In this document: positions 28,209-59,971 of the stretch, piece after piece
How positions within the stretch are numbered: position 1 is the stretch's first letter
How the letters are laid out: every line of letters starts with the position of its first letter
IMG/VR virus record: IMGVR_UViG_3300045988_095776
Location: 15,135 to 79,134 of that record
Origin: a virus
Length of the DNA stretch: 64,000 nucleotides
Strand: one strand, 5' to 3'
Program-made: the position numbers and the translations under genes
Notes under the pieces: generated by a model
What the model saw: the letters and a program-made list of their open reading frames with translations, nothing else
Databases searched by the model: none
What the model was told of the DNA's origin: nothing

Positions 28209-29228
28209 ATGGATAAAGAAATTGTTGCAAATTTTGAGAATTTATATCGTTCTTACAAAAAGGTTAAGAGCGGTAAAAAATTTAATTCAGGTACTGCAAG
28301 ATTTTCTAATTTGTCTCTTGAAGGCATTCATCTCTTGAAGGAACAATTAGAAAGTCAAACGTATACCATAAATCCGTATAATAAATTTCAAATTCATGAG
28401 CCAAAAGAGCGAACGATAGAATCATGTGCATTTAAGGACAAAGTAGTGCAGAGATGCTTTTCTGATTACATTCTGACGCCGAATCTTGAAAATATCCTGA
28501 TTAAATGGAATACTGCCGGGCAGCAAGGAAAAGGGCAACATATGGCAATGGACGGGTTAAGAAATCAAATGTTGGATGTCTATAAAAGAAATGGAATGAA
28601 TAGTTGGATTGTAAAATGTGATATTCACAAATACTTTTATTGCATAGACCATGAAATCATGAAAGATGTTTTGGATTATTACTTTGATGATGATTTTACA
28701 GTCTGGTTGAACCATTTGTTTATCGATAGTACAGATAATCCGGGACTTCCATTAGGGAATCAGGTAAATCAGAAATACGCTCTTTTGTTGTTACATTCAT
28801 TGGATCAAATGATAACGATTGAATTTGGAAATCCATATTACGGACGATACAACGATGATTTTTATGTGATTTGTAAAACGAAAGAAGATGCCAGAGAAAT
28901 TCTCGAAGCAATCCGAATGATGATTGAAAGTCTTAGACTGGAATTAAACCCTAAATCACAAATTGTACCATTTCGCATGGGCTTGTGTTACCTGGGCTTT
29001 CATCATTACGTAACTGATGAAGGAAAATACATCAGAAAATTGCGTGGTGATAAGAAAAGAAAAACACAGAGAAAAATCCGAAGATGGGTACGGTCAGTGA
29101 ATGACGGGAAGATGTCGATAGAAAAATTCCATGAAAAATACGGAGCATGCAAGAATCATATGCTTCATGGAAATTGCACCAAACTATGTCATAGTATTGA
29201 TTTAGAAATTGAAAGGAGAATGAAATGA
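28209..29228 (+). CDS. DGR-type reverse transcriptase
   Basis: RT motifs: HEPKERTIESCAFKDKVVQ, GLPLGNQVNQ, and the catalytic RYNDDF (Asn where Met is usual). Confidence 0.85.
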   Translation: MDKEIVANFENLYRSYKKVKSGKKFNSGTARFSNLSLEGIHLLKEQLESQTYTINPYNKFQIHEPKERTIESCAFKDKVVQRCFSDYILTPNLENILIKWNTAGQQGKGQHMAMDGLRNQMLDVYKRNGMNSWIVKCDIHKYFYCIDHEIMKDVLDYYFDDDFTVWLNHLFIDSTDNPGLPLGNQVNQKYALLLLHSLDQMITIEFGNPYYGRYNDDFYVICKTKEDAREILEAIRMMIESLRLELNPKSQIVPFRMGLCYLGFHHYVTDEGKYIRKLRGDKKRKTQRKIRRWVRSVNDGKMSIEKFHEKYGACKNHMLHGNCTKLCHSIDLEIERRMK

Positions 29229-29578: not shown

Positions 29579-30199
29579 ATGAGTTATAGCAGTTTATATG
29601 GAATTGATAAGGATTACAAAGGAGAGGTTATAGAATAGTTCGGAAATTCATGGCTGTTTGCACCTATTGTGTGGGATGTCTTGACAGAAAAATATATCCC
29701 GCCAAGTAAATTAATAAGTCATGGATTTAAGAGAAATATCATTCATGATACTTCTCTTTGGAACGAAGTAAACAATGAAATTAACAATTGTGACAATGCG
29801 GTAGACAGGATTTGCTGGGAATTTTCTGGACAACAGGTTTTCTTCACAAAAGATAAGAGCTGTGTGGCAAATGCAATAAGAGACTTTATTAAGCAAAATA
29901 ATAATTATTGCAGAGACACCGAAGATAATATCCCGGTGCTGGAAAGAGAGCACATCATTGAAAGATTCGAAAAGATTGCTAGTGAAATAGAACTGTTATC
30001 GGAAGATACACCGTATTTTGTAATGAAGAACACTTCTGTTGATGACAGCGTAGAAAGATGGTTTGAAAAATACGATGATAAGCAAGATGAATATATAGAA
30101 ACTGGTCTTAATCAGGTTGATGAATTTGTTACAGAATTTGTTGTGATCGAAGATGGGAAAATTGTGAATTTCATAAGCAATTTGGATTTTGAGTATTGA
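29579..30199 (+). pseudogene. hypothetical gene with an in-frame TAG at codon 20 (nonsense or read-through)
   Basis: ATG 29579 with a GAGAGG RBS; TAG at 29636-29638. The same frame continues to 30199. The track start GTG 29669 has no SD. Confidence 0.5.
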
Positions 30200-42383: not shown

Positions 42384-44054
42384 ATGAACATATATTATGC
42401 AAGGGAAAGATTAAGGACAGGATCTATTTTTGACCTAAAGTTAAAAGTGGCATATTACGCAAGAGTTAGCACGGAAAAAGTGGAGCAGCAGGTATCTATC
42501 AAGCACCAGCAAGAATATTACGAGGAATTTATTCGTTCAAATCAGAATTGGACTTTTTCGGGAGCATATATTGACGATGGAATATCTGGAATCCATGCCG
42601 AAAAGAGAGAGGAATTTCAGAATATGATTCGAGATGCAAAGCTCGGAAGAGTAGATATGATCATCACGAAAGAGATTTCCAGATTTGCCAGAAACACGCT
42701 TGACAGCATTCAATATACCAGAGAACTACTGTCCTATGGAGTTTGTGTATGGTTTCAAAACGACGGGATTAATACCATTGACGAGGACAGCGAATTACGT
42801 TTGACAATTATGGCAGGCGTTGCGCAAGATGAACTTCGAAAACTTTCGAGCCGTATCAAATTCGGACATGCAAGGTCAATTCAGAACGGAGTTGTGCTTG
42901 GAAATCGAATATACGGATATCACAAGAAAGACGGGAAACTCACTATAGTTCCTGAAGAAGCTGAAATGATTAGGATGATATTCAGAGATTACGCATCGGG
43001 AACCATGTCTACCCCTAAATTAGAAAAGAAATTATGGGACATGGGGTACAGGAACTTCAAGGGTGGAAAAATAAACAGAGATGTTATCAGGAATATTATC
43101 AAAAACCCCAAATATAAAGGATATTTTTGCGGTGGAAAAGTGAAGATTGTCGATATGTTTACCAAAAAGCAAGAATTCCTGCCAGAATCCAAATGGGTAA
43201 TATTTAAGGATGACGGGAGCCGGGTACCTCAAATCATAGACGAAGAAACATGGGAAAAGGCGAATGAGTATATGAAGAAGAGAAGTGAAGCTATAAAATC
43301 TCATCGAACTTCGTTTAAAAACGGAAATCTCTTCACGGGTAAAATTTTTTGCGCTAATGATGGCGCTCCGTACTGGATGAAGCAGCATTATGTACGCGGA
43401 AAAGAAGATGTGAGATGGGTATGCAGTTACAAAATCAAAAATGGAGCGGATTCTTGCAGTTCACACGGTATCAGAGAGTCTGATTTAAAGAAAGTGGTCG
43501 CAAGCCTTATCAACGAATCTTCATGTAATATAGATGAAGTTATCAAGGAATACTTAAATATAATAAGAAAAGTTATTAATAATAAGCCGGATACGGGCAT
43601 TGAAAAAGAAAGGCTTCAAAACCAGATTGATGCAATAAAAAAGAAGAAAGAAAAAATACTGGAATATAACCTTAATGGAAATATTCCGGACGAAGAGTTT
43701 ATATCAAGGAATAAGGACTACACAAAACAAATCATTGATTTGGAGATGGAAATTTCGAAATTAGTCCCGGAAGATGTCGAACTACAAATAACAGAAAAAC
43801 AACTTTCGAAAATCACAGAGGAACTAAAAAGTTTTAAAGAAGTAAAAGAAGAAGATATAAATCGCCAAATTATTGATAAGCTTTTTGACAAAATAGTTGT
43901 GTCGTTGTCGGCGGATAAACAAACCGTGTGCAAATTCTATTTAAGCACTGGATGCTTGAAAATACGGGATTTGGGTGGGGTTGTTCTGAATACATGTTAT
44001 TTAACAATACGTAAGAACGACACAAGGCATTTTATAGGCGAACTTGTAGCTTAA
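42384..44054 (+). CDS. large serine recombinase (probable phage integrase)
   Basis: Resolvase catalytic domain (VAYYARVSTEKVEQQ...ITKEISRFARNT), a recombinase domain, a Zn ribbon and a coiled coil. 556 aa. Confidence 0.85.
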   Translation: MNIYYARERLRTGSIFDLKLKVAYYARVSTEKVEQQVSIKHQQEYYEEFIRSNQNWTFSGAYIDDGISGIHAEKREEFQNMIRDAKLGRVDMIITKEISRFARNTLDSIQYTRELLSYGVCVWFQNDGINTIDEDSELRLTIMAGVAQDELRKLSSRIKFGHARSIQNGVVLGNRIYGYHKKDGKLTIVPEEAEMIRMIFRDYASGTMSTPKLEKKLWDMGYRNFKGGKINRDVIRNIIKNPKYKGYFCGGKVKIVDMFTKKQEFLPESKWVIFKDDGSRVPQIIDEETWEKANEYMKKRSEAIKSHRTSFKNGNLFTGKIFCANDGAPYWMKQHYVRGKEDVRWVCSYKIKNGADSCSSHGIRESDLKKVVASLINESSCNIDEVIKEYLNIIRKVINNKPDTGIEKERLQNQIDAIKKKKEKILEYNLNGNIPDEEFISRNKDYTKQIIDLEMEISKLVPEDVELQITEKQLSKITEELKSFKEVKEEDINRQIIDKLFDKIVVSLSADKQTVCKFYLSTGCLKIRDLGGVVLNTCYLTIRKNDTRHFIGELVA

Positions 44055-52051: not shown

Positions 52052-52501
52052 ATGTCGATACTTAAAAAATTTTTAAAAAATAAAAAAGGCGGTTTTGCCC
52101 TTCAGGATGAAAATTATCATCCGCTTGAAAAACCTTTAATGCATGACAAGGTGTATGAATATCATCACGAGAAAGCTGTTCTGGAGGATGAAAAGCTGTA
52201 TGACACAGAATCAGCGAAAAAAGTTTTTACATACGAATCAAGTCTGGAATATATCACATTATGTAGAGCAAAACGCAGAGCTTATTTCACAACCCCTCAT
52301 GGGAATTGGTTTTCTGCTGAAGAAGAAGTTGAGACTGAAAGTAGAATCACTGATGTTGGAAGCTATTGTATACAGGCTACAAAAACCATTTACACATACA
52401 GTGATCTTCGAATGGAACAAGAAGCTACAGTTAAAGTTCTGATCGGCAAAAATGATTATGAATTGTACAAGAAATATTTTGGGGAGGTAGAAGAAGCATG
52501 A
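52052..52501 (+). CDS. hypothetical protein
   Basis: 149 aa. Confidence 0.5.
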   Translation: MSILKKFLKNKKGGFALQDENYHPLEKPLMHDKVYEYHHEKAVLEDEKLYDTESAKKVFTYESSLEYITLCRAKRRAYFTTPHGNWFSAEEEVETESRITDVGSYCIQATKTIYTYSDLRMEQEATVKVLIGKNDYELYKKYFGEVEEA

Positions 52502-52821
52502 TTTCGGAAGAATACAGTGAACACTTTGATGAACTTCGCAAGAATCGAGTCGAGGTAAGCTATCATAAATACGGTCCTGCCAGGAAGAATTTTAAAACCG
52601 GGAACGTGCAGGCGCTTCAGTCCATGGAACGGTGTATTGAGAAATATAATTCTACCGGAAACACAGAATATCTCGTGGATGCAGCAAATTACCTCATGTT
52701 CGAGTTTATGTACCCGCAGCATCCTAAAGCACACTTCAAAGCTACAGACAGCAAGGATAGCGCCGGGATAGTCGGAATCAGCGTAAAGGAAATGGAGGAA
52801 TTGATGAATGAACAATACTAA
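52498..52821 (+). CDS. hypothetical protein, MazG/NTP-pyrophosphohydrolase-like (weak)
   Basis: KYGPARKN...EYLVDAANYLMFEF pattern. Confidence 0.35.
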   Translation: MISEEYSEHFDELRKNRVEVSYHKYGPARKNFKTGNVQALQSMERCIEKYNSTGNTEYLVDAANYLMFEFMYPQHPKAHFKATDSKDSAGIVGISVKEMEELMNEQY

Positions 52822-53017
52822 CTCTGTAACTGTTACGTACGCAGTAGCCATTTTAAGGCACGAACTTCTTACACATGGAGAAGTTTACAATGGTTTCAAA
52901 GCAAGCCTTAAAACAGCAATTGAGAAGTACTGTACATGCGGACTGCCATTCGATCCAGAAGAAGAAACTGCCGGTAAGATTCTTGATTTTATGATCGGAG
53001 AGGAACAGAAAGAATGA
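52808..53017 (+). CDS. hypothetical protein
   Basis: 69 aa. Confidence 0.4.
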   Translation: MNNTNSVTVTYAVAILRHELLTHGEVYNGFKASLKTAIEKYCTCGLPFDPEEETAGKILDFMIGEEQKE

Positions 53018-53190
53018 TTCTTGCAAAATTTGTAGCAGCCATGTTGGATATTGCATTTTTTACATTGGTTTTAGCATTTCTTATATCACAGGACGAAACC
53101 GAAAAGAAAGGCAATCCAATAGCGACGGCAGTATTTATATTAATGGAAATATGTTTCGCGGTTAATGCAGTTGTGATTTTTATGTTATAA
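53014..53190 (+). CDS. small two-TM membrane protein (58 aa; holin-like candidate)
   Basis: MILAKFVAAMLDIAFFTLVLAFLIS...AVFILMEICFAVNAVVIFML. Confidence 0.4.
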   Translation: MILAKFVAAMLDIAFFTLVLAFLISQDETEKKGNPIATAVFILMEICFAVNAVVIFML

Positions 53191-53200
53191 GGAGAACCCA

Positions 53201-53338
53201 ATGTGGTTAGCATTCACAATACAAATTCCCCTGTTCACCATACTGATTGAACGGGTGAAAATACAAGAAAAGCAGAAGCCTGTCGTTCTCAGGTTCGGGA
53301 AAGCCTTTGAATCTGACAGGTCGAGGCATCCAGAGTAG
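53201..53338 (+). CDS. small membrane protein (45 aa)
   Basis: GGAGAA RBS. MWLAFTIQIPLFTILI. Confidence 0.3.
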   Translation: MWLAFTIQIPLFTILIERVKIQEKQKPVVLRFGKAFESDRSRHPE

Positions 53339-53506
53339 CTTAGGTCTGCGTCAGTGAAATACAATTTCCCAAAGTAACTGGCGCGGACTTAACGATACAA
53401 ATATAGCCATGATGCTTTCTACAACCACCAGAATATATCACGTTTCCGGGAACGCCAACCCGGAAATCAATGGGCTATCGCCAAGCGGTAAGGCACAGGT
53501 GAATAC

Positions 53507-53992
53507 ATGACAAAAGAATTGATATACGATGGCAAAACATACATAAATTTTCTCATTGATGAAAATGGAAATGTATTAAACAGTAAAACAAAAAGAATTT
53601 TAAAAAAGTCAATTTTCAAAGATGGATATTATCATATAACATTGCCAATGGGAAAAAGAGGAAAAGTGAAATCAATCAGACTTCATAAAGCTGTTGCAGA
53701 AACATTTATTCCAAATCCTCAAAAATATTCAATCGTTCATCATAAAGATGAAAATAAATTAAATTGTTGTTGCGAAAATCTCGAATGGACAGATTCAAAA
53801 ACAAATACTCAATATCATTTAAAAAAATTAAGCGAAATAACGGATTATTATAATAATCGAAAGCTTGCAGAAGATGATGTTAAATACATAAGAAAAAATA
53901 AAGGGATAATAAGTTCGAGAGAATTAGCAAAAATATTTAATGTTTCTAAAACTACAATTTTAAACGCTCAAAATTATAAGCTGTACAATTGA
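53507..53992 (+). CDS. HNH homing endonuclease (NUMOD4-like N-terminus, C-terminal HTH)
   Basis: RLHKAVAETFIPNP...VHHKDENKLNCCCENLEWTDSKTN. The ATG lies 6 nt after the tRNA anticodon-stem strand, whose AGGTGA serves as the SD. Confidence 0.8.
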   Translation: MTKELIYDGKTYINFLIDENGNVLNSKTKRILKKSIFKDGYYHITLPMGKRGKVKSIRLHKAVAETFIPNPQKYSIVHHKDENKLNCCCENLEWTDSKTNTQYHLKKLSEITDYYNNRKLAEDDVKYIRKNKGIISSRELAKIFNVSKTTILNAQNYKLYN

Positions 53993-54005
53993 TATTAAGA
54001 ATTAT

Positions 54006-54081
54006 TGGGGGTTGGCGAAGCGGATTAACGCATCGGTCTTTGACGCCGACATTTTCATCAGTTCAAATCTGATACCCCCAG
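54006..54081 (+). tRNA. tRNA-Gln (anticodon TTG)
   Basis: Cloverleaf by hand:
- Acceptor TGGGGGT/ACCCCCA (U1-A72), with G73.
- Anticodon arm TCGGT-CTTTGAC-GCCGA.
- T arm ATCAG-TTCAAAT-CTGAT.
- Unusual 7-nt variable loop. Confidence 0.7.
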
Positions 54082-54316
54082 TAACATTCACCTGTATTCG
54101 CTGGTTCGAATCCAGCTAGCCCAGCTGACTGTATCTTGTGCATGGTATAGTTCCTCTGAAATACCATCTATCCCATCAGGGGATGAATAAAGGGGCTTCA
54201 AACGTCCCGGATGGTTTCCACATTTTGTGGAGCAGCGGACCCTTTGTTGCGACTGCGAGGGCAAGAATCGCAACAGCAGAGGAAGTTACTCTTGAACTGC
54301 AATAACCCTCTGCTTA

Positions 54317-54389
54317 GGAAACTTAGTTCAGTTGGTAGAACGGTCGGCTCATAACCGACAAGTCACAGGTTCAAGTCCTGTAGTTTCCA
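54317..54389 (+). tRNA. tRNA-Met or tRNA-Ile2 (anticodon CAT)
   Basis: Perfect cloverleaf: GGAAACT TA GTTC AGTTGGTA GAAC G GTCGG CTCATAA CCGAC AAGTC ACAGG TTCAAGT CCTGT AGTTTCC A. Confidence 0.85.
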
Positions 54390-54940
54390 TTTCTTCCATA
54401 TGATGTCTATCCGTTTTATGGACAGAAAAAACTGTTGAATGAGTGTATGTGGATTATTTTCATGAAAGGTGTGTAACGGCACAGCCTGTTCGATGAAGAT
54501 AATTCCCCGTTCGGCACAGTCTCCGAGTTAAATTGTCGTCAATAAGCGCGCATTGAGGGCAGGAAGTTTTCAAGAGACATATAAAAGGTTTTGTTGTTAT
54601 ACACAAAGACATTAATATCCAAATCCGAAAACAACTCCGTGGGGCATACCACGGTTACCAAAAAGCCGTCAGGTTGGCAAAAATACGATAGTCCAAGTTA
54701 TGAAAAATTGCCTAGTGGAAAGCATAACACGAAAAAATCATTGCTAACCCGGAACAATCTCCGGGTTCTGGGGGAATAATACCATAAGGGGCAGAGGGCT
54801 GATTAACAGTACCATGGCGGTTCAACTCCGCATTCTCCCATTATCCAATCTGTAAATATTGGATATGAGGAAGCTGTCCGAGATGTAAGAAACAGTCGGC
54901 TTGTGGATTGCCGGTACAAATACGCTAAAAATCCACACAT
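54390..54940 (+). ncRNA. ORF-free helix-rich 551-nt spacer: candidate large structured RNA
   Basis: No credible ORF. Many local hairpins plus a 9-bp long-range pairing (54469-54477 with 54597-54605). Bounded by tRNAs. Confidence 0.35.
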
Positions 54941-55012
54941 GGCAGGATAGAGAAGTGGAATCTCGCAAGGCTCATAACCTTGAGATCGGCGGTTCAAATC
55001 CGCCTCCTGCTA
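54941..55012 (+). tRNA. tRNA-Met or tRNA-Ile2 (anticodon CAT), second copy with a different sequence
   Basis: GGCAGGA TA GAGA AGTGGAA TCTC G CAAGG CTCATAA CCTTG AGATC GGCGG TTCAAAT CCGCC TCCTGCT A, with G1-U72. Confidence 0.8.
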
Positions 55013-55549
55013 TTTTCAAACATGGTTAACTCAGTGCAGATAGATTTTTCAGTCTAGCTGAGATGCAGAGTTATATGAGATAGAGTAGTTCGGGATACTG
55101 GGCTATCAACTATCTTTCTGGCAGGAGCGATTCTGCCAGAGGAGGAAGAAACTTCCAATACACCTTGTAGTGTATCATCATAAAGAGACCAAAAGCAGAA
55201 TCCTTGTGGTCAGTGTATAATAGACGCTTGCGGTGCAAGAATAATCCGTTGATGTGAGGGGTGTGAGAGACCACGGACTAGGCGGAAATCTCATTAAGCT
55301 GATTTGCCTTGAACCTGAGAAATCGGGGTATAACACAAGAGATTCGTTAGAGTAGCGGTATGGCATTTCATTCATAAGGGAAAACTTCTGAAAGAACCGT
55401 GAAATTTGTGGGTGACATTCCCATTTGTGCTTGACCGCGGTAAGAAGCTCAGGGTCGCTCCCGAAGGCTCAGACTTATCGTCACAGTGGCTGAATATGGT
55501 TGCAAGTATGATGGATAAGGGGAAACCCTAATCATGTTTGAATAGTTGA
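55013..55549 (+). ncRNA. ORF-free helix-rich 537-nt spacer: candidate large structured RNA
   Basis: No credible ORF. Hairpins at 55119-55139 and 55143-55155. Long-range GTGGTC/GACCAC pairing (55205-55210 with 55269-55274). Bounded by tRNAs. Confidence 0.35.
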
Positions 55550-55634
55550 GCTGACGTACCGAAATGGTTATAACGGCGTAGTCTTGAAAACTAATGTGGT
55601 GAAAGCCCTGTAGGTTCGAATCCTACCGTCAGCG
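55550..55634 (+). tRNA. tRNA-Ser (anticodon TGA), class II
   Basis: - Acceptor GCTGACG/CGTCAGC.
- 3-bp D stem.
- Anticodon loop CTTGAAA.
- 15-nt variable arm.
- T arm GTAGG-TTCGAAT-CCTAC. Confidence 0.7.
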
Positions 55635-55638
55635 TTAT

Positions 55639-55719
55639 GGTGCATTGCTGTAATGGTATCAGAGTAGGTTGCTAACCTATCCAACAGAAATGTTGTACAC
55701 GTTCGATTCCTGCCTTTCC
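55639..55719 (+). pseudogene. tRNA-Ser(GCT)-like fragment with defective T stem and acceptor
   Basis: The D arm CTG-TAATGGTAT-CAG, the anticodon arm GTAGG-TTGCTAA-CCTAT and the variable arm CAACA-GAAA-TGTTG are fine. The T stem and 3' acceptor do not pair. Confidence 0.3.
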
Positions 55720-55755
55720 GATTCCAATGAACTGCAATCATTGGAATCTTTTTTT
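55720..55755 (+). terminator. rho-independent terminator closing the tRNA cluster
   Basis: GATTCCAATGA-actgcaa-TCATTGGAATC followed by TTTTTTT. Confidence 0.8.
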
Positions 55756-55883
55756 CTTACTTCGTTCGGTTCCAGTGTTTCTCGTTGGGAGATTTATGCC
55801 GTTCAAGTCGGCGCACTGGACTTTTTTAATTAAGGAGATGTCTATGGACACAAAAGGATATAAATGTTGGGAGGAGAACAAGC

Positions 55884-56093
55884 ATGAGTGATTTGTCTGA
55901 ACTTATTAATAGAGGCGGTCTTATTGATGATTTTAAGATAAAAGAGTTAGAAGATGAGCAAACGCCCATAGACCCTATAAAGGTAGCAAACTGGTTGATT
56001 GATCGCGGATTAAAAAATGGAATCCGATTATACGGAAAAAGTGAACTTAGACAAATTGCCAAACACCTTTTAATTTATTGTGGGGACGAATAA
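55884..56093 (+). CDS. hypothetical protein
   Basis: 69 aa with a GGGAGGAG RBS. Confidence 0.5.
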   Translation: MSDLSELINRGGLIDDFKIKELEDEQTPIDPIKVANWLIDRGLKNGIRLYGKSELRQIAKHLLIYCGDE

Positions 56094-56254
56094 TGCAAAT
56101 AGCAGGAAAAGAAATCAAAGACGAGTGTTCCAGATGCGGAAATATCCTCGAATGCGAATTGTTCCGTCAGGGGCATGGAATAAAACAGGAACGTGAGAAT
56201 GTAGCGAAGATGATTGAGTGCCAGATGAAACATAGGGAAGACAGGGAGAAATGA
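56093..56254 (+). CDS. small Cys-containing protein (53 aa)
   Basis: ATG overlaps the previous stop. Confidence 0.35.
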   Translation: MQIAGKEIKDECSRCGNILECELFRQGHGIKQERENVAKMIECQMKHREDREK

Positions 56255-56258
56255 GATT

Positions 56259-56543
56259 ATGGAAAATGATTTATTGTTACGAGATAAACGTAAATGTCCA
56301 CTTTGTGGAGGAACGGTAATCAATACAGGAGTGGATATCTTTGGCGGCGACGTAGATGCTGCAGGTTTGAGAACTGATGCAGAATGGATTTGTACAAACT
56401 GCAAAACTGAATTTAATAGTGAATTTTGTCTCGAATCTGATAGGATTAAGACGATTTATAACGCAAAGGCCACATTACTTGATAAAAAAGATTGTCAACC
56501 TAACTTTCTTGGAGAGTCAAGCACTAATAGAGGAATGTGGTGA
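56259..56543 (+). CDS. Zn-ribbon protein
   Basis: CPLCGG...CTNCKT. Confidence 0.45.
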   Translation: MENDLLLRDKRKCPLCGGTVINTGVDIFGGDVDAAGLRTDAEWICTNCKTEFNSEFCLESDRIKTIYNAKATLLDKKDCQPNFLGESSTNRGMW

Positions 56544-58470: not shown

Positions 58471-58737
58471 ATGAAGAAAATATTTTTTGCTGCGTTATTA
58501 TCAATGATGCTGTTTGGATTAACAGCATGTCAATCGACAACAAAGAATTTGGGTGGGACAACCACAATAAAATTAAAACCAGGTGTAAAACTGGAAGAAA
58601 TCACGTGGAAAGAAGATGATTTGTGGTATCTTACTCGACCAATGAGAGATAACGAATCAGCCGAAACACATACATTTGACCAGTCAACTGATTTTGGTTT
58701 CGAAGGTCAAGTAATTATTATTGAGAAGAATAAATAA
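58471..58737 (+). CDS. lipoprotein (88 aa)
   Basis: Signal peptide with the lipobox MMLFGLTAC. Confidence 0.6.
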   Translation: MKKIFFAALLSMMLFGLTACQSTTKNLGGTTTIKLKPGVKLEEITWKEDDLWYLTRPMRDNESAETHTFDQSTDFGFEGQVIIIEKNK

Positions 58738-58768
58738 ACCAGTCAGAGAGCCAGAAAGGAGTGCCACT

Positions 58769-59971
58769 ATGAGCAATTTGAAGATATTTACAGAAAACAT
58801 CGAACCAGAAGCATTAAACCAGATTTATACATTGATAAAACAGCCTGCATTTTCTGAATGCAAAGTACGAATCATGCCAGATGTTCACGCAGGGGCAGGA
58901 TGTGTAATTGGTTTTACTGCCGATCTCGGAGATAAAGTAATCCCGAACATTGTTGGCGTAGACATTGGATGTGGAATGCTTACAACACAAATTCCTGCTG
59001 ACGTTGGAACAATAGATTTTAAAATTCTCGACGAAGTAATAAGAAACAATGTTCCGGCAGGAAGAAACGTACGTGACGAAATCATAAATTTTGAAGAATT
59101 AGAAGAACTTCATTGTTTTTCTCGACTCAAAAATATTGAATGGATTCGCAGGAGCCTTGGTACACTTGGGGGCGGAAATCATTTCATTGAAGTTGACACT
59201 GATTCGAAAGGATTAAATTATCTTGTAATCCACACTGGGAGTCGGAATCTCGGGAAACAAGTAGCTGAAATATATCAAAAAATTGCCATAGAAGACATGC
59301 AGGGTGCAGACAAGCTCGAAACTGAAATACAAAAATTGGTGAAAGAATACAAGCGTTCTGGCAGACGCAAGGAAATCCAACATGGTATTGACGAATTAAA
59401 ACGAAAATGGAATCCAGACAAACTGGGTATTCCAAAAGAATTGTGCTACTTGACAGGAGAACACAGAAAACAATATCTGCATGATATGAAAATCTGTCAA
59501 GAATTTGCAAGAATAAACAGACGATGTATACAGAGCACCATATTTTACACTATGAATTGGGCGCTCCAAAGAAATACATGGTTTGATACAATTCATAATT
59601 ATATTGACCACGATACAAACATTGTTCGCAAAGGTGCAATATCAGCTAGACATGGTGAAAAAGTTCTTATCCCAATGAATATGCGAGACGGATGCATTAT
59701 CGCATTCGGGAAAGGAAACGAGGACTGGAATTGTTCAGCCCCGCATGGTGCAGGACGTATTATGAGCCGGTCAAAAGCAAAAGAAAACATCTCGTTAGAA
59801 GAATTTGAGAAGTCTATGAATGGGATATATACAACATCCGTTCAGAAATCTACGATTGATGAAAGCCCTATGGCCTACAAACCACCGCAAGAAATTATTG
59901 ATAACATCAAAGATACTGTAGAAATAGTTGATATTATCAAACCTATATATAACTTCAAAGCAAGTGAATAA
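58769..59971 (+). CDS. rtcB: RtcB-family RNA ligase
   Basis: MPDVHAGAGCVIGF...GVDIGCGM...GGGNHFIEVD...SAPHGAGR. ATG 58769 after AAAGGAG. Confidence 0.85.
   Translation: MSNLKIFTENIEPEALNQIYTLIKQPAFSECKVRIMPDVHAGAGCVIGFTADLGDKVIPNIVGVDIGCGMLTTQIPADVGTIDFKILDEVIRNNVPAGRNVRDEIINFEELEELHCFSRLKNIEWIRRSLGTLGGGNHFIEVDTDSKGLNYLVIHTGSRNLGKQVAEIYQKIAIEDMQGADKLETEIQKLVKEYKRSGRRKEIQHGIDELKRKWNPDKLGIPKELCYLTGEHRKQYLHDMKICQEFARINRRCIQSTIFYTMNWALQRNTWFDTIHNYIDHDTNIVRKGAISARHGEKVLIPMNMRDGCIIAFGKGNEDWNCSAPHGAGRIMSRSKAKENISLEEFEKSMNGIYTTSVQKSTIDESPMAYKPPQEIIDNIKDTVEIVDIIKPIYNFKASE

Follow-up and report, generated by a model that had tools for sequence, protein, structure and literature searches.

A probable mobile cassette of an HNH endonuclease gene and a replacement tRNA-Gln(UUG) inside the tRNA-Gln(UUG) gene of a phage

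To our knowledge, homing endonuclease genes are thought to persist in essential genes only by means of self-splicing introns or inteins, and otherwise to reside between genes. tRNA genes are also the targets of integrating elements, which bring a duplicate of the part that they displace and rely on integrases and on att sites at the 3′ end of the gene. Friedrich et al. reportedly described in 2007 an HNH gene, MobE, inside nrdA of Aeromonas phage Aeh1 as a case of "genes in pieces", in which the gene fragments encode subunits that assemble into a working enzyme. Here, we describe a locus in a 64,000-nt stretch of viral DNA (IMG/VR record IMGVR_UViG_3300045988_095776, positions 15,135 to 79,134; hereafter the window), in which a tRNA-Gln gene (53471–54124) is split at its anticodon loop by an insert with an HNH endonuclease gene and a second, complete tRNA-Gln(UUG). 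The insert is likely a mobile "HNH endonuclease + tRNA-Gln(UUG)" cassette that sits inside the phage's own tRNA-Gln(UUG) gene and supplies the replacement.

The locus resembles the MobE case in that a free-standing HNH gene has entered an essential gene with neither intron nor intein, and splicing is not needed for the host to cope. While the Aeh1 fragments still work, the fragments described here cannot decode, and the cassette brings a whole spare gene. As in integrating elements, the tRNA is restored by a carried copy, but the sole enzyme is an HNH nuclease and movement would proceed by recombinational repair. The mobE family has been described (PMC2790892). SegB, a GIY-YIG homing endonuclease of phage T4, is free-standing and encoded in the tRNA gene cluster of that phage; it has its recognition site in tRNA genes (a conserved T-arm motif) and spreads with neighbouring tRNA genes in co-infection (PMC2330249). 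SegB and the HNH protein are both phage homing endonucleases without an intron or intein. SegB belongs to another nuclease family and is intergenic, whereas in the window the HNH gene lies inside its predicted target, the anticodon loop is deleted and a full replacement of the same specificity is present. Two related loci, L281 and L298 (L numbers denote loci compared with the window), are intergenic. Group I introns in the anticodon loop of tRNA genes likewise place a homing endonuclease gene within the anticodon arm and retain exon pairing in the stem. In those introns self-splicing restores the tRNA and the loop bases stay at the junction, whereas here the loop is gone and a second, nested gene restores the function. 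A 2014 review places every phage group I intron known at that time in a protein-coding gene, although phages have many tRNA genes (PMC3984707). The closest solved homolog of the HNH protein is I-HmuI, an HNH nicking homing endonuclease from the group I intron within the gene for DNA polymerase in Bacillus phage SPO1 (PDB 1U3E), which is also phage-borne and of similar size (174 aa vs 161 aa here), with the catalytic H...N...N aligned; the cassette differs in having no ribozyme and a tRNA gene as its target. Full-text literature searches did not turn up any report of a tRNA gene interrupted by an endonuclease cassette with a tRNA of its own.

The 5′ half of the outer tRNA-Gln gene (53471–53500) reads TGGGCTA TC GCC AAGCGGTAA GGC A CAGGT and the 3′ half (54090–54124) reads ACCTG TATTC GCTGG TTCGAAT CCAGC TAGCCCA G. 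Joined through any 7-nt loop, the halves were called by ARAGORN as a 73-nt tRNA with U1-A72 and G73, in agreement with the original prediction of a tRNA-Gln scaffold, which had been made from this DNA without database searches; joined without a loop, they gave no call. In intron mode (introns ≤700 nt, lowered threshold; 53300–54300), ARAGORN found the nested tRNA only, because the anticodon loop of the outer gene is absent. Lacking an anticodon, the outer gene cannot decode. The 589 nt that separate the halves consist of an HNH open reading frame (ORF; 53507–53992, + strand, 161 aa), the nested tRNA-Gln(UUG) (54006–54081, + strand) and spacer; the missing loop and the insert content had been predicted originally. 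The spacer amounts to 6 + 13 + 8 = 27 nt, as counted, which is too little for a group I core, and Rfam gave no ribozyme match at E ≤ 1.

Measured against the nearest intact alleles, the foreign segment comprises 593 nt (53499–54091, + strand) and its ends form a perfect 6-bp inverted repeat (GTGAAT/ATTCAC). It replaced 11 nt, CACTTTGACTG (tRNA positions 30–40), namely the 7-nt loop and, next to it, two pairs of the stem. The 5′ relic (53471–53498, + strand) of the resident gene retains the acceptor 5′ strand, the D arm and anticodon-stem positions 27–29 and matched the 5′ part of 37 intact alleles exactly, the homology to CAGCA stopping past CAG. The 3′ relic (54092–54124, + strand) retains anticodon-stem positions 41–43, the variable loop, the T arm, the acceptor 3′ strand and G73; it is ≤1 nt from circulating intact alleles, and its downstream flank is that of the intact locus L059. 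The anticodon stem is extended to a perfectly paired closing helix of 9 bp, in which CAGGTGAAT (53496–53504, + strand) pairs with ATTCACCTG (54086–54094), the latter preceded by a TAAC linker (linker and strand together 54082–54094, + strand). Minimum free energy (MFE) and centroid folds of the 654-nt element both held the acceptor stem, D stem, closing helix and T arm (z = −2.85). The only Shine-Dalgarno-like sequence for the HNH ORF, AGGTGA (53497–53502), lies within the 5′ strand of this helix, 4 nt before the ATG. It faces ATTCACCT (54086–54093), which resembles the 16S anti-Shine-Dalgarno sequence. Both the 9-bp extension and the role of AGGTGA had been recognized in the original prediction.

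The identity of the interrupted gene was established by comparison with related phages. INPHARED phage records held no close relative of the window, only one fragment of ~75% identity (L001, MT838485.1, human faeces), which was the source of the first intact allele. It was collinear, with the same upstream ORFs, an intact tRNA-Gln(UUG), a conserved ~190-nt spacer and a tRNA-Met. Exact-match scans of IMG/VR with the window's own halves gave no match; a degenerate D-arm pattern yielded at least 120 loci, with which the results of a second scan were pooled, and many of the listed IMG/VR loci had flanks 87–97% identical to the window. More than 20 listed syntenic relatives were intact and read ...GGCA CAGCA CTTTGAC TGCTG TATTC..., where the window reads ...GGCA CAG/GTGAAT...ATTCAC/CTG TATTC... 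(slashes mark the junctions). An example of an intact allele is GGTAAGGCACAGCACTTTGACTGCTGTATTCG, and the allele of L059 and L014 contains ...GCCAAGCGGTAAGGCACAGCACTTTGACTGCTGTATTCG... Among the matches listed in both scans there were 224 intact alleles (103 distinct), with the anticodon UUG in 221, CUG in 2 and UUA in 1. Positions 31–39 were A-T in every one of these 224, and none had a CAGGT/ACCTG stem. The original prediction had left the lost anticodon as unknown. Since the syntenic relatives are intact with UUG and 221 of the 224 listed intact alleles have this anticodon, it was UUG: the interrupted resident gene is an ordinary tRNA-Gln(UUG), with the same anticodon as the nested gene.

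The outer halves of split alleles were 0–1 nt from the halves of circulating intact alleles, and split-specific changes were few (G73T in L123, C70T in L127). A comparison with related genomes had been proposed as a check for unrelated fragments; because the halves are homologous base for base to intact syntenic tRNA-Gln genes, they are not chance fragments. As for the minority anticodons, the UUA allele had the loop TTTTAAT and would read the TAA stop codon, two alleles had CUG, and in L003 ARAGORN called a tRNA-Stop. These cases may represent suppressors that derive now and then from the tRNA-Gln family.

The insert was found with identical junctions in ~20 other contigs from independent samples (IMG/VR, ENA and Logan). 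Together with the >20 listed intact relatives, these contigs constitute a fixed-site presence/absence polymorphism among otherwise collinear genomes. Cassette copies occurred in at least five flank backgrounds, each of which also has intact siblings. Based on HNH identity to the window, the copies fell into type 1 (94–100%; L095/L124, L044/L130, L123, L125–L128, L146 and L147), type 2 (80%; L129 and L148–L151) and three other sub-lineages (81–83%; L288–L291, L293–L295 and L292). Some pairs of loci shared nearly identical cassettes between diverged flanks (adjacent 400 nt on each side). The window and L123 were 99.8% identical in the cassette vs 74% upstream and 89% downstream, L124 and L127 100% vs 73% and 69%, and L129 and L149 100% vs 81% and 63%. 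Since insert identity is far above flank identity, the insert is interpreted as a mobile homing cassette that, judged by these alignments, has moved recently between diverged phage backgrounds. The near-identity of the halves to intact alleles would be the signature of repeated homing into standing alleles. The pattern CCCCCAGTAACATTCAC also matched L136, L138 and L142, unrelated contigs that matched by chance and were discarded.

The HNH ORF matched PHROG 59 ("HNH endonuclease", E = 1.5e-32) and aligned with the I-HmuI structure (E = 8e-11) over query residues 15–106. Pfam matches were just below cut-off, both for HNH_3 (22.9 bits, cut-off 24.8) and for NUMOD4 and several helix-turn-helix models; the helix-turn-helix is C-terminal. 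The ORF was intact in all 15 close copies, one of which (L128) has an in-frame 9-nt deletion. The ratio of nonsynonymous to synonymous substitution rates (dN/dS) was 0.06–0.16 overall at synonymous divergence (dS) of up to 0.93, with 0.06 within type 1 (dS 0.32) and ~0.12 between types (dS ~0.9). The gene is thus a predicted member of an I-HmuI-like family under purifying selection, and the endonuclease looks active, given the intact ORFs, the low dN/dS and the I-HmuI homology with aligned catalytic residues. In a search for a prophage or host, no relatives of the HNH protein were found among 185,579 representative genomes.

The nested tRNA-Gln(UUG) was detected by Rfam with 52.5 bits (gathering score 29) and by ARAGORN at 54005–54082, and ARAGORN found no other intact tRNA-Gln in the window. 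Across seven variants of the nested tRNA, all 140 of 140 helix cells were in standard pairs, and the acceptor pair 6-67 was G-C, C-G, U-A or U.G. Only 4 of 76 positions differed between cassette types, while the HNH genes had diverged to dS ~0.9. Because of these compensatory base-pair changes, the nested tRNA looks functional. Among the 262 tRNA-Gln genes of the fetched loci, similar tRNAs were present in cassette copies only, and the type had no match in IMG/VR outside cassettes or in the 185,579 representative genomes. Within these three collections, the nested tRNA type is confined to the cassette.

A search with the HNH protein gave 257 homologs at E ≤ 1e-10, most of them 160–165 aa. In all nine sampled lineages (HNH 53–84% identity) the gene adjoined a tRNA-Gln(UUG), and three of the nine kept both outer halves. 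Since the HNH stop codon lies inside the tRNA in several lineages, the two genes form an old, tightly linked module. In L300 (HNH 61%, pig gut) the 5′ half ends in ...GGCA CAAAAAC and is followed by the HNH gene, a tRNA-Gln that overlaps the ORF end, and GTTTTTG CATTT GTTGG TTCAAAT CCAAC TAGCCCA G, giving a helix of 7 bp. L296 (HNH 58%, NCBI assembly) has a different outer tRNA-Gln, TGCCCTT...AGAGACTT / AAGTCTCT...AAGGGTA G, with a helix of 8 bp. In L331 and L330 the 5′ fragments are decayed and the 3′ half is absent, and L297 consists of a 5′ half plus a nested tRNA that matches model positions 8–63 only. The HNH gene is directly upstream of an intact tRNA-Gln in L284–L286, where the carried tRNA copy is only a 25-nt duplicate (leader and first 17 tRNA bases, from the 5′ end) at the HNH start. 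In L298 it is directly upstream of a tRNA-Gln, and in L281 it lies 75 nt downstream of one. More distant homologs (L131–L135, 37–42% identical) were ordinary free-standing genes and uninformative.

Sigma-70 promoters were observed at the 5′ junction of two of these loci. L296 has a perfect TTGACA-N17-TATAAT (L296:1148–1182) followed by a Shine-Dalgarno sequence, the HNH gene and the tRNA-Gln, and L331 has a near-perfect TTGACA-N17-TATTAT ~100 nt upstream of the HNH start at 1001. Read as CTTGACA, the −35 box resembles the former anticodon loop CTTTGAC; the equivalent in the window is CATGACA, the ATG of which is the HNH start. This resemblance (CATGACA in the window, CTTGACA in L296 and L300) is suggestive of an HNH start codon derived from the anticodon.

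The outer halves were found in several states of decay. L287, with an HNH protein 84% identical to that of the window, has the 5′ half TGGGTTATTGACAAGCGATTAAGTAAAAGGCGAAT, with ~9 substitutions and broken D and acceptor pairs. Its linker and the 3′ strand of the helix (TAACATTCACCT) are deleted along with the whole 3′ half, so that the nested tRNA abuts the usual downstream flank. Other decay states are represented by L331, L330 and L297. As L287 has lost the 3′ half and its 5′ half is decaying, the outer gene is a dispensable relic.

We propose that, when a cassette-bearing phage and a relative infect the same cell, the HNH enzyme nicks or cuts the relative's uninterrupted tRNA-Gln gene, presumably near the anticodon arm. 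Repair would be templated by the cassette-bearing allele, the tRNA halves serving as homology arms, and the endonuclease gene and tRNA would be copied into the break. The nested tRNA would escape cutting by having a D arm and anticodon stem unlike those of the target. Phage function would be kept because the cassette brings a spare tRNA, making an intron ribozyme unnecessary, and once the cassette is fixed the outer halves would be free to decay. Less certainly, the closing helix would hold the halves in a tRNA-like fold and, in the lineage of the window, bury the HNH ribosome-binding site; it probably limits HNH translation, preserves processing of the tRNA operon by RNase P and RNase Z, or does both. 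The first explanation offered in the original prediction, a homing cassette that destroyed a resident tRNA and carries its replacement, is thus borne out by the fixed-site polymorphism, the excess of insert over flank identity, purifying selection, covariation and the decaying halves.

Several points weigh against this explanation. Both the site that the enzyme would cut and the protection of the nested tRNA are deduced from sequence. The conservation of the halves fits selection and constant "refreshing" by repeated homing alike. A sigma-70-like promoter was not found near the cassette in the window, so that transcription reading through from the tRNA operon has to be assumed for HNH expression. 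With 7 nt in its variable loop and 11 nt in its D loop, the nested tRNA is unusual, and that it is aminoacylated is a prediction. The cassette ends pair beyond the native 5-bp stem in three lineages (the window group, L300 and L296), and types 1 and 2 share an unchanged TAACATTCACCT on the 3′ side in spite of a dS of ~0.9. Because a helix occurs in three lineages with different sequences and its 3′ arm has not changed between the types, some selection probably acts on the outer tRNA-like fold, which would then be more than an inert relic.

This last point leads to an alternative that is compatible with a homing cassette and adds a function to the halves, namely that the outer tRNA body is a working RNA scaffold. 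RNase P and RNase Z would use the tRNA-like shape to cut the HNH mRNA and the nested tRNA from the operon, and the helix would also mask the ribosome-binding site or protect the 5′ end of the HNH mRNA. We regard such a scaffold as possible, though doubtful. It would account for the closing helices of unrelated sequence (CAGGTGAAT/ATTCACCTG, 9 bp, in the window; CAAAAAC/GTTTTTG, 7 bp, in L300; AGAGACTT/AAGTCTCT, 8 bp, in L296) and for the unchanged 3′ arm. It would also fit the position of AGGTGA opposite an anti-Shine-Dalgarno-like arm, and a type 2 helix base altered on both strands relative to the intact allele (T27-A43 to A-T). A ROOL RNA of the same operon is likewise bounded exactly by tRNAs. 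Within the close group, however, the helix showed one-sided changes only, with five unpaired cells and no compensatory pair (A.C in L129 and L288; C.U and A.G at the base pair in L293 and L292). Base pair 27-43 differed by sub-lineage (C-G, A-U, C.U or A.G), and the T stem of the outer halves carried covariation already present among intact alleles. The 3′ half is missing from L287, L331, L330 and L298. Sequestration of the Shine-Dalgarno sequence fits the window group but not L296 or L300, where this sequence is 50–60 nt from the helix, so that masking would not be general. An explanation that may apply to all three lineages is a tRNA-like frame that preserves operon processing by RNase P and RNase Z or guards the 5′ end of the HNH mRNA. 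Any role of this kind is dispensable, as the helix has been lost from several lineages.

A rival explanation is a true tRNA intron, with a transcript that would be cut at both junctions and its halves ligated, for instance by the RtcB of the phage, into a mature Gln-type or suppressor tRNA; the original prediction had raised such processing and rejoining of the halves. The halves do form a perfect tRNA body brought together by 7 + 9 bp. The RtcB gene named in that prediction is indeed present 4.6 kb downstream (58721–59971, Pfam E = 5.8e-63), and there is an in-frame TAG at 29636. The junction bases (GAATACA... / ...AACATTC), however, give no 7-nt loop with U33 and a purine at 37 in any split. 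Rfam searches at E ≤ 1 over 52500–56500 found no group I, group II or small-ribozyme match, 27 nt being free, and at gathering scores the whole window held tRNAs and ROOL only, with no intron or ribozyme. The closing helix runs through 9 continuous bp and opens directly into the insert, so the bulge-helix-bulge of archaeal-type introns (two 3-nt bulges and a 4-bp helix) is absent. RNase P and RNase Z cuts leave 5′-phosphate and 3′-hydroxyl ends, which are not RtcB substrates, and the ends expected around the nested tRNA are therefore unsuited to this ligase. RtcB was also encoded, at 93–97% identity, by six relatives with intact alleles (L063, L094, L012, L014, L078 and L029). As the gene is present regardless of the cassette, it is part of the phage backbone, is not linked to the split gene and was rejected as a splicing ligase. 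Finally, L287 has no 3′ half to rejoin, and the cassette already provides the UUG anticodon. Taken together, we consider splicing highly improbable.

The TAG at 29636 had been connected to the lost anticodon in the original prediction. While its presence was confirmed, the connection was rejected, since the interrupted allele is UUG and the TAG aligns with GAG (Glu). In the ORF concerned (29580–30199), 24 of 29 relatives have GAG at this codon, and one other contig has TAG. The comparison indicates a G-to-T point mutation to a nonsense codon (or an error in sequencing), after which translation may restart at GTG 29669, instead of Gln or stop-codon recoding. That unrelated tRNA-like fragments were brought together by chance or in a chimeric assembly can practically be dismissed, since identical junctions were present in ~20 contigs from IMG/VR, ENA and Logan assemblies of different samples and the halves equal intact alleles base for base.

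Downstream of the split gene, the window encodes further structured RNAs. A full-length ROOL RNA (RF03087, 376.8 bits; 55006–55549, + strand) overlaps the end of tRNA-Met (54940–55013) and stops exactly at the start of tRNA-Ser (55550). The exact tRNA boundaries suggest that the ROOL ends are made by tRNA-processing enzymes. The ~190-nt spacer between tRNA-Gln and tRNA-Met (54125–54316 in the window; L001:736–955; also L095 and L287) was conserved in relatives otherwise ~75% identical and includes AAAGGGGCTTCAAA.G.CCCGGA and GACCCTTTGTTGCGACTGCGAGGGCAAGAATCGCAACAG hairpins. It had no Rfam match and may be an undescribed structured RNA. Relatives also contain a 117–121-nt tRNA-like gene with no counterpart in the window (L001:1570–1690, L287:2919–3035; Rfam tRNA 48–50 bits), with normal acceptor, D and T arms and ~45 extra bases, without an ORF, in place of the anticodon arm. 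With this gene, the phage group has another type of interrupted or expanded tRNA, different from the split tRNA-Gln. In L002, a fragment of an unrelated gut phage, the variable region of a tRNA-Gln(UUG) (L002:3709–3792) has 17 nt, and a RAGATH-21 RNA of 86.9 bits is also present (L002:3032–3108). The backbone genes of the window include, besides RtcB, a reverse transcriptase (RVT_1; 28209–29228), a large serine recombinase (42384–44054) and a GH25+CHAP endolysin (14060–15460). These genes suggest a temperate siphovirus whose host is a Gram-positive gut bacterium; among the representative genomes, the search revealed no prophage copy.

A broader interpretation, in which we place limited confidence, is that of an I-HmuI-like family dedicated to tRNA-Gln(UUG), which inserts together with a complete or partial restoring copy. 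This would be a third strategy beside self-splicing and intergenic placement. The halves would perhaps be kept as a tRNA-shaped frame, with a closing helix contributed by the cassette, from which the tRNA-processing enzymes of the cell would free the endonuclease mRNA and the spare tRNA. In RNA processing, the cassette would then amount to a protein-free and ribozyme-free analogue of an intron.

The cassette would destroy its target yet supply a spare without splicing, which is a different way of tolerating an insertion. It is also an exception to the 2014 observation that interruptions were not known in phage tRNA genes, numerous as these are (PMC3984707). In annotation, the interrupted gene escapes tRNA finders and pipelines would call the HNH gene free-standing, while tRNA halves near an RtcB gene could be misread as a sign of tRNA splicing. 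As a system, the locus is compact and open to testing: its nuclease has 161 aa, the predicted target within a tRNA gene is short, and related loci form a natural series that begins with fresh insertion and ends with the decayed relic. The tRNA genes are here the cargo of a selfish nuclease, which may be one route by which phage tRNA repertoires turn over.

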